Of a stretch of 64,000 bases of DNA, positions 37,095 to 62,561 are shown one piece after another (positions within the stretch are counted from its first letter, which is position 1; the number at the start of each line of letters is the position of its first letter). The DNA is taken from the IMG/VR virus record IMGVR_UViG_3300037419_000871; one strand, written 5' to 3'. The DNA is from a virus. Made by a program: the position numbers and the translations under genes. The notes beneath the pieces were generated by a model that saw nothing but the letters and a program-made list of their open reading frames with translations, was not told the DNA's origin and ran no database searches.

Positions 37095-37171
37095 TGGAGC
37101 GGGCCGTGGGAATCGAACCCACCTAGAACAGTTTGGAAGACTGCCGCCTTAGCCCAGACAGCCAGACCCGC
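37095..37171 (-). tRNA. tRNA-Gly(TCC)
   Basis: Acceptor GCGGGTC/GGCCCGC, anticodon arm GCAGT-CTTCCAA-ACTGT, T-arm GTGGG-TTCGATT-CCCAC, U73, encoded CCA. Confidence 0.88.
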
Positions 37172-59741: not shown

Positions 59742-60254
59742 TTACGCCGCCCGCGCCAACGTCACGGCGCGCTCAGTGCTACGCTGCGGCAGCCACGTTT
59801 TTTCTTCGCTAAACGGCATCACACAATCACCGCCATACCCAAGCAAACGAGGCTGGCCGTAGCTGCACTCGGTCAGCGCGCGAACGTCGTCTTCGTACAT
59901 TCGCGAGGGGTGCTCGGTCATAAGGGCGAGCAGTTCAAGGCTGGCGCCTTGGTCGGTCGGGGCTTCTTCAATCTCTGCAATCAGAATCAGGCGGCGGACC
60001 ACTGCGCGGCTAAGGCCGGTTTTGCGGGAAATTTCTTCGTTGGTATATTGATCCCCCCACAACTCCATAACTTTGGAGTATGTAGCGTCTGATACAGACG
60101 TCTCGTTTCGGGCTGCATACAGTTCGGCACGGTGACGGTTGTAGAATTTTTCTACGGACGAGACCGACGTCCCTAATCTTGCGGCAACTTCCGCCACGGT
60201 AATTTCAGGGATGCAGGCAAGATCAATGGTTTTTTCTCGGTCCCAGCGAAACAT
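59742..60254 (-). CDS. two-HTH protein, first gene of leftward operon (Cro/GcrA-like position)
   Basis: ATG 60254 after GAGG; TVAEVAARLGTSVSSV and TNEEISRKTGLSRAVV. Confidence 0.65.
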   Translation of the reverse strand: MFRWDREKTIDLACIPEITVAEVAARLGTSVSSVEKFYNRHRAELYAARNETSVSDATYSKVMELWGDQYTNEEISRKTGLSRAVVRRLILIAEIEEAPTDQGASLELLALMTEHPSRMYEDDVRALTECSYGQPRLLGYGGDCVMPFSEEKTWLPQRSTERAVTLARAA

Positions 60255-60300
60255 TACGGCCTCTTGCGGGTTGGTTGCCTTAGCGTTCGGTAACCATACG

Positions 60301-60335
60301 CGAGAGTCGTAGATTCGCAATAGAAAGACCGTAAA
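60301..60335 (-). promoter_or_regulatory. leftward promoter/operator
   Basis: Minus-strand TTTACGGTCTTTCTATTGCGAATCTACGACTCTCG, 30/35 identical to 61769-61803. Confidence 0.7.
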
Positions 60336-60453
60336 AATCTAATAGGTATTGATGGATTTTTCGTATCCGTTTACGATGCTTATGTTTTTTCCTCTTGCGC
60401 AGCCTACGAATGTTCCATTATAGGAACGCTGAACTAGTACAAAAGGAGTAGAG

Positions 60454-61155
60454 GTGATGGATTATGGAAAGTGGCTGAAGAAGGAAATGACTAGAATCAG
60501 CGCGCGTGGGCAAAAGACGAAAAACATCGAGGCGTTGATGAAGCGGCTGAAGAAGTCGACGAACCATTATTACACATACGAGCGCGGCGAGATCGATCTA
60601 ACGCCTAAGGAAATAGCCATTTGTGCAGAGTTTTTCGGCGTCGAGCCGCCCACAAAGCAGAAGCCATCGGCAGAGACTAACGTAATTCCGTTTCACCCGC
60701 CTGGCGTCGGGTCAAAGACGATCGAATATCCTGTTCTCGGTGTCGTAGACGCAGGCGCATTTCGCGAAGCAGATATGCTGGCGCAGGTGGATCCGCGCAC
60801 CGTGCCCGGCCCGGCCAACACGGCCTACCCTCACGCGGCACCCATGGCGTGGGAGGCTCGCGGAGACTCGATGAATGAAGCCAAGATATTCGACGGTACA
60901 ATTCTGCTCGGCGTAGACTTCCAGCAAGCCGGTGCCGTCCTTACCAACGACATGGTTGTTGTCGTCCAGCAAAATCGCGGCGGGCTAATTGAGCGTTCCG
61001 TTAAGGCGGTCGCCGTTTATCCCGATCGCATTGAGTTCCAGCCGAGATCGTCCAACCCTCTGCACAAGCCTTTTGTGTATGAAAACGGCGGCGATGACGG
61101 CGTTTCAGAAGTAACAGTCCTCTCCATTATCCACTGCACTGTGAATTTGTTTTAG
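60454..61155 (+). CDS. CI-like repressor (XRE HTH + S24 peptidase domain)
   Basis: N-terminal HTH (YYTYERGE), C-terminal RGDSMN (Ser) and SVKA (Lys). Confidence 0.88.
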   Translation: MMDYGKWLKKEMTRISARGQKTKNIEALMKRLKKSTNHYYTYERGEIDLTPKEIAICAEFFGVEPPTKQKPSAETNVIPFHPPGVGSKTIEYPVLGVVDAGAFREADMLAQVDPRTVPGPANTAYPHAAPMAWEARGDSMNEAKIFDGTILLGVDFQQAGAVLTNDMVVVVQQNRGGLIERSVKAVAVYPDRIEFQPRSSNPLHKPFVYENGGDDGVSEVTVLSIIHCTVNLF

Positions 61156-61206
61156 TCATCGCGATTGTAACTTGCGCCACCCACAATTTTGACGCATTCT
61201 ATTATT

Positions 61207-61395
61207 GGGCGTAGAAAACCCGGACTTCGTTGTAGGCTAAATCCGCATATGGACGGTGCGCCGAAACCCGACTCGCACGTCGGCACCGTACCCTGGCGGG
61301 TACGCGAACTGGCCTTTGGCCGGGAGCGTCTCGCCATGTCCAACCCGCAAGGGTAAAAGCGGACGGCCCGTAAACGAAGCGGGTTTTCTACCCCC
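61207..61395 (+). ncRNA. candidate structured non-coding RNA
   Basis: 12-bp closing stem GTAGAAAACCCG/CGGGTTTTCTAC, internal stems, ACCC-GCAA-GGGT GNRA hairpin. Confidence 0.5.
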
Positions 61396-61431
61396 GGCTG
61401 CCGCGCCGATTGCGGCACATTGGGGTCTATC

Positions 61432-61707
61432 ATGCATCGATTAGCTATAGTACAGGAACGGGGAGGAAGGGCCGCGCTCGATACGTTCGACGCGGCCTTA
61501 TATTTCGCAATTCTTAGAACGTGTGGCGGCAACCCGCATGTGCGGGCAGACGGCATCTACTGCCGCGTCCTAACAACCGTCACGATCATCAATGAAGCCG
61601 ATCGATGGGCTGCACGGCACGACCCCAATGGTGTCGCGCGGGTAGCGTATGCGCGCGGGCTGTGGTTGCGCCGTAGCGAAGGAACAGACGTCCTTGAGCT
61701 TGGCTAA
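61432..61707 (+). CDS. hypothetical protein
   Basis: ORF between candidate RNA and terminator. Confidence 0.45.
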   Translation: MHRLAIVQERGGRAALDTFDAALYFAILRTCGGNPHVRADGIYCRVLTTVTIINEADRWAARHDPNGVARVAYARGLWLRRSEGTDVLELG

Positions 61708-61727
61708 CCCGTCCGCGCGCATACGTG

Positions 61728-61762
61728 AATAATAGGGCCGTTGCTGGCCCTATTATTTTTTT
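61728..61762 (+). terminator. Rho-independent terminator
   Basis: AATAATAGGGCC-gttgct-GGCCCTATTATT perfect 12-bp stem plus T run. Confidence 0.75.
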
Positions 61763-61768
61763 ATGATC

Positions 61769-61810
61769 TTTACGGTTCTTCTATTGCATTTCTACGACTC
61801 TCGTATATTC
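61769..61810 (+). promoter_or_regulatory. rightward early promoter/operator
   Basis: TTTACGGTTCTTCTATTGCATTTCTACGACTCTCGTATATT: TTGCAT -35-like, TATATT -10-like; repeat of 60301-60335. Confidence 0.7.
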
Positions 61811-61842
61811 TGCTCCTCATCGTAGTTGAGGAGCCCGCCCCA

Positions 61843-62247
61843 ATGTCCTCCATCTCCATCCAGCGCCAGCACATCCAGAACACAACGAACTGGCCGCTTT
61901 ATCGCGAACACCGCGCCTACCTGGCCGATCTGTTCCCGGCTATTCGCTACAGCGGCCAGCCCAAGGCCCCGCTGTGCTGCCACATCAAGTACGATCTGAT
62001 CGGTGCCAACACCGGCCTCAGCGCCGACGACATCAAACACTTCCTGCGCGCCTACACCTTCGGGCCGAAGTACCTGCGCGCGTTGAAGGCCGGTGCTGCA
62101 CGTTTCGACCTGTGGGGCGAACCCGTCGGGATTGTCACCGACGACGAAGCCGAAATGGCCGCGCTTGCGCTTGACGTGCATTACGAAATGCGGCGCGCGG
62201 GTCGCGTTGGTACGGGTGCTGTGCGTGGGCTGGAGTGCGCGGCATGA
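61843..62247 (+). CDS. ProQ/FinO-domain RNA-binding protein
   Basis: LADLFP..., PKAPL..HIKYDL, LRAYTFGPKYLRAL.AGAARFDLWGEPVGIVTDDEA matches FinO/ProQ pattern. Confidence 0.85.
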   Translation: MSSISIQRQHIQNTTNWPLYREHRAYLADLFPAIRYSGQPKAPLCCHIKYDLIGANTGLSADDIKHFLRAYTFGPKYLRALKAGAARFDLWGEPVGIVTDDEAEMAALALDVHYEMRRAGRVGTGAVRGLECAA

Positions 62248-62561
62248 CCAGCGCAGCAAAGCATACGGCGGCCGTGCCTCAGTGGAAAGACACGACGAGC
62301 TATTCGCAGGGACGTGACCGCAAGCCGACATGCTGGTCGATTGATTTCGGCGGGATGCATCTGAGCGTTCTAACGGGTCATCTATACAACCCCGACAATT
62401 GGGTTGTTCATTGCGAACCATGGTTTAACGCGAAACAGATCGCGCCGAAGTCAACCGACACCGCCACGGCGCAAAGGCTCGCAATCGAACTCGTAGCTGA
62501 GAAGCTGCGCGTGGCATCCGCCACCCTCGCCCGTTGCTCCTCGCAAGTGGAGGAAGGGTGA
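62244..62561 (+). CDS. hypothetical phage protein
   Basis: WKDTTSYS, WVVHC. Confidence 0.7.
   Translation: MTSAAKHTAAVPQWKDTTSYSQGRDRKPTCWSIDFGGMHLSVLTGHLYNPDNWVVHCEPWFNAKQIAPKSTDTATAQRLAIELVAEKLRVASATLARCSSQVEEG

Follow-up and report, generated by a model that had tools for sequence, protein, structure and literature searches.

A stretch of viral DNA of 64,000 nucleotides (IMG/VR virus record IMGVR_UViG_3300037419_000871; hereafter the window) carries in its immunity region a structured element, located at 61207-61399 on the + strand between a CI-like repressor gene and a ProQ/FinO-domain gene. This element is a genuine, strongly supported structured RNA and belongs to a conserved family that is un-annotated in Rfam. 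The explanation that we favour, with a probability of roughly 60%, is that it is a leader RNA representing a divergent version, from alphaproteobacterial phages, of the c4 antisense system of phage P1, with upstream decoy sites. Under the whole of this explanation, positions 61171-61707 would be one transcription unit consisting of its own promoter, a structured leader RNA of ~190 nt and a small open reading frame (ORF).

Homologs were collected with a pattern derived from the conserved core followed by nhmmer, which yielded ~27 homologs in viral contigs, and a covariance model (CM R1) was built from 26 members. The covariance model matches the window at 61278-61421 (112.6 bits, E = 1.6e-22). 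It identified 31 copies scoring 90-151 bits in loci that were taken from viral contigs or retrieved from assemblies by exact-protein look-up; among them, L077 (loci are designated by L numbers) represents the window's own phage a second time. Metagenome pattern matches numbered more than 120, and the first 80 contained a further 22 positive copies. Pairing is kept in 98.4% of the cells of the covariance model alignment, with changes on both sides in 18 of 31 pairs and double changes in 122 cells. The covariation score of 0.479 compares with 0.181 for shuffles (0/500 as high) and 0.06-0.10 for slid-partner controls. RNAalifold, applied to 23 members, independently gave the same fold, with a 5' GGG/CCC hairpin, a YUGGCG-loop hairpin and a three-way junction. 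An earlier reading of the window from its sequence (the original prediction) had placed a discrete structured RNA with two competing folds in the immunity region and named covariation on homologs as a check; the strong covariation found here, together with folding, bears it out. G-U pairs are frequent at four positions (UG:21, GU:22, GU:13 and UG:25) and would be A-C mismatches on the opposite strand, therefore the + strand is the RNA. The orientation of the element relative to the downstream ORF is constant. At gathering thresholds, Rfam 15 yielded only tRNAs from the window and 14 member loci, and blastn with 61150-61850 had no hit in the phage collection.

The 3' part of the element is the three-way junction (61319-61398, + strand). 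It is closed by helix P2 (61319-26/61391-98), which has the consensus GCCGGGRG with CYCCCGGC in the family, and contains P4 (61327-34/61359-65), the P5 hairpin (61343-54) with a GCAA loop that is GNRA or UNCG across the family, and P6 (61367-70/61380-83). An invariant internal loop, made up in the window of CATGTCCA (61335-42) and AAAA (61355-58) on the + strand and given as GCCAUGUCCA / UAAAAGCG by RNAalifold, holds the most conserved nucleotides of the family, which are unpaired. Two short segments are displayed by this domain: b' (AACGAAG, 61373-79) in the P6 loop, and a' (TTTTCTAC, 61384-91), which is left unpaired between P6 and the P2 3' strand. Their counterparts lie in the 5' arm (61207-61231), which forms a GGG/CCC hairpin (61207-09/61219-21) with a1 (GTAGAAAA, 61211-18) in its loop, followed by b1 (CTTCGTT, 61225-31). 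The GGG/CCC stem was found in 23/23 aligned members. Between the two parts is a variable 5' domain (61232-61318) with hairpins CCGAC/GTCGG at 61268-83 (stem 61268-72/61279-83), GTACCC-TGGC-GGGTAC at 61288-61303 and CTGGCC-TTT-GGCCGG at 61309-23, the last of which (GGCC/GGCC, 61311-14/61318-21) competes with P2. The number of hairpins in this domain differs between members, and five of the six pairs of its YUGGCG-loop hairpin have compensatory changes. One to three hairpins share the YUGGCG loop (61288-61303 in the window, and in L012, L063, L016 and others), as in GCGCC-UUGGCG-GGCGC, and this repetition suggests a protein-binding or tertiary-contact site.

The original prediction had described an element closed by a perfect 12-bp stem, and this stem is present. 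The arms 61207-61222 and 61380-61395 (16 nt each) are 94% complementary and contain the perfect stem 61211-61222/61380-61391, and the + strand of 61200-61400 has a minimum free energy (MFE) of -101.8 kcal/mol compared with -74.3 +/- 4.8 for shuffles (z = -5.8; 0/200 as good). The stem is the pairing of a1b1 with a'b'. This fold (P1) and the fold with P2 and P6 are mutually exclusive or pseudoknotted. Among the nested stems that had been listed, CCGAC/GTCGG, GGCC/GGCC and the GNRA hairpin were recovered, whereas TCCGC/GCGGA is seen in the single-sequence MFE fold and the family instead pairs GCG+GACG (61359-65) with CGUC-U-CGC (61327-34). The 3' arm had also been proposed to form an alternative CCCG..CGGG-TTTT hairpin resembling a terminator. 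The hairpin, P6, is real and conserved in the family (six pairs, five with compensatory changes, 100% of cells paired), but it is not terminator-like there because the downstream U-run is not conserved; the U-run is the specificity segment a'.

Between loci the a and b segments are hypervariable; within each locus they match. In the window, a'b' and a1b1 are complementary over 12 + 7 bp. A second sense copy, a2/b2, is present ~35 nt 3' of the junction in 15/23 aligned members and in most of 18 metagenome members examined. A GGCU/AGCC hairpin presents a2 in its loop, and the ribosome site is covered by b2, 8-12 nt 5' of the ATG. The three copies co-vary locus by locus. Cognate a'b':a1b1 duplexes have a mean energy of -23.1 kcal/mol compared with -10.6 for non-cognate combinations, and cognate a'b':a2b2 duplexes a mean of -22.5 kcal/mol compared with -12.9 (0/10000 permutations as good in both cases). 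The three-way pattern recurs in the metagenome members. Family membership, fold, strand and the three-way complementarity of the leader are established here. A mosaic exception was observed in L094, where a2 (TGTGATAG) mismatches the locus's own a' (TTTCTAG) and a1 matches it; by its sequence, this locus looks like a recombinant with a target from another specificity type. Across the family the downstream ORFs comprise more than 10 unrelated orphan ORFs belonging to no Pfam or PHROG family. Several of these cargo ORFs (in L012, L015, L063, L008, L053 and L046) are acidic, with repeated (D/E)EPSLG(W) motifs and a common N-terminal helix (…RLRKEA..EI.RLIAFLD).

Nine copies form a subfamily of the window type (the window, L004, L005, L031, L081, L082, L083, L085 and L207), in which every complete locus has the order S24 repressor, element and ~90-aa ORF; the upstream part of L082 is truncated. 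Despite differing a and b sequences, these nine copies keep the a1b1:a'b' pairing and the whole junction by compensatory change. Since this complementarity is kept with different sequences, the pairing itself is under selection. Scans for a trans target in the window-type loci gave only a1b1 and GC-rich background. In MFE folds of at least 4/8 window-type leaders, the ribosome site of the small ORF pairs with the C-run in the 3' strand of P2 (61391-96 in the window) or sits inside the C-run helix, and the relationship is looser in the others. The pairing appears once a1b1:a'b' has formed, and these modelled folds suggest a cis-switch.

The small ORF of the window (region 61418-61707, + strand) has a GGGG ribosome site at 61422-25 and an ATG at 61432, and encodes 91 aa. 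A profile search found 52 cluster representatives of this ~90-aa family at E<=1e-3, and a word-indexed protein search with the small ORF returned the query itself only. Its AF2 structural model has a pLDDT of 86 and matches no fold clearly. Searches for its function gave no match in Pfam, PHROGs or protein atlas features. A Foldseek search of the PDB was likewise negative, and VIA-align offered no more than a weak similarity to beta-hairpin docking domains (Z = 5.3). A relationship to the Icd protein of phage P1 was rejected, as profile comparison gave a probability of 0.3% and no similarity. Motifs of the small-ORF family include FD..F..LR..G..P, WA..DPDG..R..YA..W..R and a terminal V.LG. Distant relatives (L209-L211) adjoin AlpA or integrase genes and lack the RNA element.

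A promoter-like site is located at 61171-61200 (+ strand), with a -35 hexamer CTTGCG (61171-76), an 18-nt gap, a -10 hexamer CATTCT (61195-61200) and 6 nt to the GGG at 61207; taking TTGCGC (61172-77) as the -35 hexamer shortens the gap to 17 nt. When 42 distinct members are aligned on that GGG, the CTTG box lies at a constant distance from it in most of them, and the terminator of the upstream gene often precedes the box. The fixed box and the upstream terminators suggest that the element has its own promoter. TTCTAT/TTCTAC words were also noted at 61197, 61779 and 61789, beside both this site and the promoter-like site of the ProQ gene, where relatives have repeats of TTCTATAC. They are candidate repressor operators or simply -10 region sequence.

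From these sequence features we infer a model that covers the promoter, any processing, the direction in which regulation runs and ORF function. The 3' half (61319-61398) would act as a c4-like RNA, with b' shown in the P6 loop and a' as 7-8 nt of single strand, and the 5' end (61207-61231) would carry the decoy sites, with a1 in the hairpin loop and b1 just after it. In members with a2b2, antisense pairing over the ribosome site would most likely repress translation of the downstream ORF, and a1b1 would be a built-in competitor of a2b2, as proposed for phage P1. In window-type copies, the closed form (a1b1:a'b') and the c4 fold (P2 and P6) would constitute a switch, which most likely determines if the P2 C-run is available to cover the small ORF's GGGG ribosome site. 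A bolder generalisation, which we offer only tentatively, is that the family is a large, un-annotated class of alphaproteobacterial phage leader RNAs in which a programmable two-segment address is written three times (as decoy, antisense and target) for private heteroimmune control of orphan cargo located beside the integrase or the repressor, and that an immunity-region variant dropped the target. In that variant the decoy:antisense helix would have become a conformational switch that uses the C-run of the closing stem to expose or mask the ribosome site, so that its c4 RNA turned into a self-contained cis-switch.

Several observations weigh against this c4-type explanation. The downstream ORFs include no relatives of ant or icd, as judged with Pfam, PHROG and an Icd profile comparison. 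The Rfam C4 and c4-a1b1 models found no match within 61100-61900 of the window at E<=10 (cmscan), and the family covariance model scored only 2.3 bits on the c4 of phage P1, which is not meaningful. All 20 sequencing runs that hold this DNA were inspected for their recorded type and none is recorded as RNA (0/20). A generic sigma-70 scan did not call the element promoter, which was found by eye and from the alignment. No a2b2 was detected by pattern and sliding duplex scans in the window, in the 10 kb beyond it or in the eight relatives, therefore classical c4-type repression cannot be the mode of action of the window copy. The pairing of its ribosome site with the C-run could be fortuitous, as it joins a G-run to a C-run.

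Other explanations share part of this evidence. The leader may be purely cis-acting, a riboswitch or protein-binding switch in which the GCCAUGUCCA/UAAAAGCG internal loop binds a ligand or protein and the a and b segments only build alternative helices, with no antisense RNA acting in trans. The concentration of the most conserved nucleotides in an unpaired internal loop, the incompatibility of P1 with P2 and P6, and the position of the element always directly 5' of a same-strand ORF fit such a switch, and c4 itself may sometimes act in cis (Weinberg 2010 supplement, PMC2864571). We nevertheless consider it rather improbable: segments that are hypervariable between loci yet matched within a locus are typical determinants of RNA-RNA specificity and needless for a ligand switch, and no common metabolite logic is apparent among downstream ORFs that are mutually unrelated. 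That the element is a decaying remnant, once a c4-type module, whose a2b2 target and cargo were lost as the small ORF recombined in and which now has no regulatory role, would account for nine window-type copies without a2b2 and agrees with the mosaicism seen in L094, where a2 departs from the locus's own a'. The compensatory changes by which the same nine copies keep a1b1:a'b' and the junction point instead to continuing selection and make decay very unlikely. It is harder still to credit that the element acts as DNA, be it an operator pair, an inverted-repeat mobile element, or a single-strand promoter or origin, despite its long terminal inverted repeats and the TTCTAT/TTCTAC words near both promoters. 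G-U pairs, which would read A-C on the opposite strand, take part in maintaining the helices, and the hairpin stems co-vary even as they diverge in sequence. The window has neither a second copy nor a direct-repeat footprint, and the only other same-sense copy in the family, a2b2, is spaced differently and is absent from the window.

The original prediction had instead envisaged a small RNA (sRNA) dependent on the phage ProQ/FinO protein encoded 450 nt downstream, the two forming a chaperone-sRNA pair that acts on the lysis-lysogeny switch or on host mRNAs. This model is favoured by the ability of FinO-domain proteins to bind highly structured RNAs and by the conserved hairpin over the ribosome site of the ProQ mRNA, a possible regulatory target. 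ProQ is the next operon downstream in 8/9 copies of the window lineage (the window, L004, L005, L031, L081, L083, L085 and probably the truncated L082). The distribution of the two partners does not bear out a cognate pair. Seven ProQ-homolog loci were compared, one from genomes and six from viral contigs, and only L004 and L005 contain an element homolog; in the other five (L001, L002, L003, L006 and L007) the repressor gene is directly followed by the promoter and ProQ, without the element. A PF04352 search of five element-bearing virus records (L008, L012, L015, L063 and L016), two of them rated 100% and 86% complete, found the domain in none (0/5), and L207 has the repressor, element and small ORF and lacks ProQ. 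A lineage-specific functional link between ProQ and the element is conceivable, and shared gene order accounts equally well for the 8/9 copies; L207 and the wider family argue that the adjacency reflects shared gene order. The terminator hairpin that had been put forward as the binding determinant for a FinO-domain protein is likewise lacking, as the c4-like domain ends without a U-tailed terminator and the CGGG-TTTT sequence is the variable a' segment. There is also no conserved complementarity between the element and the ProQ leader. We therefore regard the ProQ-dependent sRNA as unlikely. An RNA-based regulatory layer remains plausible as phage RNA regulation, but its FinO/ProQ-sRNA form is unsupported as stated.

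Two candidate contacts with the ProQ gene were rejected. The small-ORF leader (61417-25) is complementary to the ProQ start (61838-46) over 9 nt, but this is no more than chance would give in the region, and homologs lack it. TTTCTAC near the ProQ promoter, considered as a target, has the same sense as a' and lies in relatives within the -10 region (TTCTATAC).

The gene features that the original prediction had reported for ProQ were confirmed. The ProQ/FinO-domain gene (61843-62247, + strand; PF04352, E = 1.6e-16, 60.7 bits with a cut-off of 27) neighbours the element and is the first gene of the rightward operon, being the first ORF past the terminator at 61727-61758. The leader of its mRNA forms a perfect 8-bp hairpin (GCTCCTCA/TGAGGAGC, 61812-19/61827-34, + strand; -13.8 kcal/mol) with the GGAG ribosome site in the 3' arm, directly after a promoter-like site. 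In single-sequence folds of the leaders, an equivalent GGAG-holding hairpin is found in 10/10 ProQ loci, down to 53% protein identity, with energies from -11.8 to -17.2 kcal/mol. The hairpin is a conserved translational feature of the ProQ gene, and nothing ties it to the element.

The remaining features of the locus lie on either side of the element. Immediately 5' is the CI-like repressor gene (60454-61155, + strand), which encodes an S24 peptidase domain and a helix-turn-helix (HTH) domain (Pfam PF00717, 1.2e-07; PF01381, 5.9e-04); repressor homologs precede the element also in L004, L005, L083 and L207. Hairpin P7 (GCCGC-GCCGATT-GCGGC, 61400-61416, + strand) separates the c4-like domain from the small ORF's ribosome site, and a hairpin with compensatory changes is predicted family-wide at this position (alignment columns 242-257). 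An intrinsic terminator (61727-61758, + strand) is located 3' of the small ORF, where it would close the transcription unit formed with the element, with a 14-bp stem followed by a T-run and arms that are perfect 12-nt repeats. It is the sole terminator-like site in 60200-62400. A perfect 13-nt inverted repeat (CGTATGCGCGCGG / CCGCGCGCATACG, 61646-61658 and 61713-61725) spans the 3' end and stop codon of the small ORF just 5' of this terminator and could form an extra stabilising or processing hairpin. Elsewhere in the window there is a tRNA-Gly(TCC) gene (37095-37171, - strand).

Most homologs sit in a genomic context other than that of the window. In the three loci whose neighbours were annotated (L008, L015 and L063), the 3' order is variable ORF, integrase, HTH_17, and in L008 a tail tape measure gene and DUF2793 lie upstream of the element. 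The L008 (10.4 kb) and L015 (16.2 kb) records have direct terminal repeats according to IMG/VR, with the element followed by an orphan ORF and integrase; the ORFs upstream of the element in L015 have no Pfam match. These records may be satellites or assembly fragments. Long near-perfect palindromes in L027 (4127-4278) and L043 (1784-1939) score on both strands, below threshold, as the plant microRNA precursor family MIR7127, and are probably large DNA palindromes near element-bearing loci. The hosts of the family are probably alphaproteobacteria in soil, and for the window's phage they are probably Bradyrhizobiaceae-like; this phage is present in JGI samples 3300038443 and 3300037466, from soil and rhizosphere.

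RNAs of the c4 type are antisense RNAs that provide a classic phage immunity mechanism, so far catalogued mainly in phages of gamma- and betaproteobacteria. The family described here extends this architecture to soil and rhizosphere phages. Current Rfam models miss the family, therefore genome annotation overlooks it. A locus-specific three-way match of two short segments over ~30 independent loci is unusually clean comparative evidence for antisense specificity, and the code predicts that swapping a or b should alter immunity specificity. The window variant keeps the pairing of decoy and antisense without a target, which bears on the long-open purpose of the a1b1 sites of c4. The family also flags more than 10 unrelated orphan ORFs and the ~90-aa protein family as what may be tightly regulated phage cargo.

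In comparing the element with known systems, several classes were rejected. These were a retron, a miniature inverted-repeat transposable element (MITE), a 6S-like or Y-like RNA, a transfer-messenger RNA (tmRNA) fragment and an attP copy of a host RNA gene: there is no reverse transcriptase, the window holds the element only once, and locus-specific variable segments are a misfit for a housekeeping RNA. FinP/FinO and RocR/RocC share with the present locus a mobile element that carries a FinO/ProQ-domain gene close to a highly structured regulatory RNA. They differ in that the RNA here is not cis-antisense to its target, its 3' end lacks a U-tailed terminator, and the RNA family and the ProQ gene co-occur in one phage lineage only.

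The only Rfam family with any similarity is sRNA-Xcc1 (RF02221; gathering score 53), an sRNA that integrons, islands and phages carry in Xanthomonadaceae and other groups. It gave a sub-threshold match in the window (26.2 bits, E = 0.037, 61318-61407) and in L043 (36.5 bits), L021 (30.3 bits) and L046 (27.9 bits). In these four members the match is full-length and covers exactly the 3' domain, with the same stem layout. In Xylella, sRNA-Xcc1 is reported to neighbour C4 and IsrK genes (PMC12189769), and in APSE phage it is reported 5' of an ORF6N gene (10.1101/2020.03.17.996009). Unlike the present element it is ~87 nt long and stands alone, and the literature found describes no a1b1 leader or three-way code for sRNA-Xcc1.

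The c4-a1b1 motif (RF03163; PMC2864571) is similar to the 5' arm in being a short hairpin with a1 in an 8-nt loop and b1 directly after it. Its consensus hairpin is CGGG-UUUGGCAG-CCCG, compared with GGGC-GUAGAAA-ACCC in the window. Of the motif's two hairpins the first is missing here, as the a1 hairpin appears to be where the RNA starts. The 5' stem consists only of the invariant GGG/CCC, so covariation cannot confirm the a1 hairpin. In the proposal of Citron and Schuster, a'b' form pairs with a2b2 at the ant operon's ribosome site, and a1b1 are possible competitors of a2b2 (Weinberg 2010 supplement, PMC2864571).

The closest architecture is that of C4 of phages P1 and P7 (RF01695, clan CL00128), which is encoded in the immI operon c4-icd-ant. 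The GenBank record of phage P1 gives the order promoter P1c4, a1, b1, c4 RNA, a2, b2 and the start of icd, and the transcript order is the same in family members with a2b2. Both RNAs have a closing stem around a tetraloop hairpin and a long-loop (b') hairpin, followed by a single-stranded a' of ~7 nt; the P6 loop here has 9 nt. Both have a segments of 7 nt and b segments of 7-8 nt, with b2 ending ~10 nt 5' of the start codon, and both occur in a phage immunity or lysogeny context. The differences are equally specific. The family has an extra helix, P4, with the invariant internal loop, a 5' domain of ~90-110 nt with YUGGCG-loop hairpins where phage P1 has a 66-nt spacer, and a closing stem of 8-9 bp compared with 17 bp; its cargo is orphan ORFs and not icd or ant, and the window copy lacks a2b2. 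As a control, the Rfam models score 68.8 bits (C4) and 51 bits (c4-a1b1, gathering score 46.7) on phage P1, whereas C4, with a gathering score of 45 bits, found no match at E<=1 in 11 other member loci. Because the models do not cross-score, the evidence extends to a common architecture and stops short of common descent. Membership in Rfam C4 or c4-a1b1 thus fails the score test, while by its architecture the element appears to work like c4.

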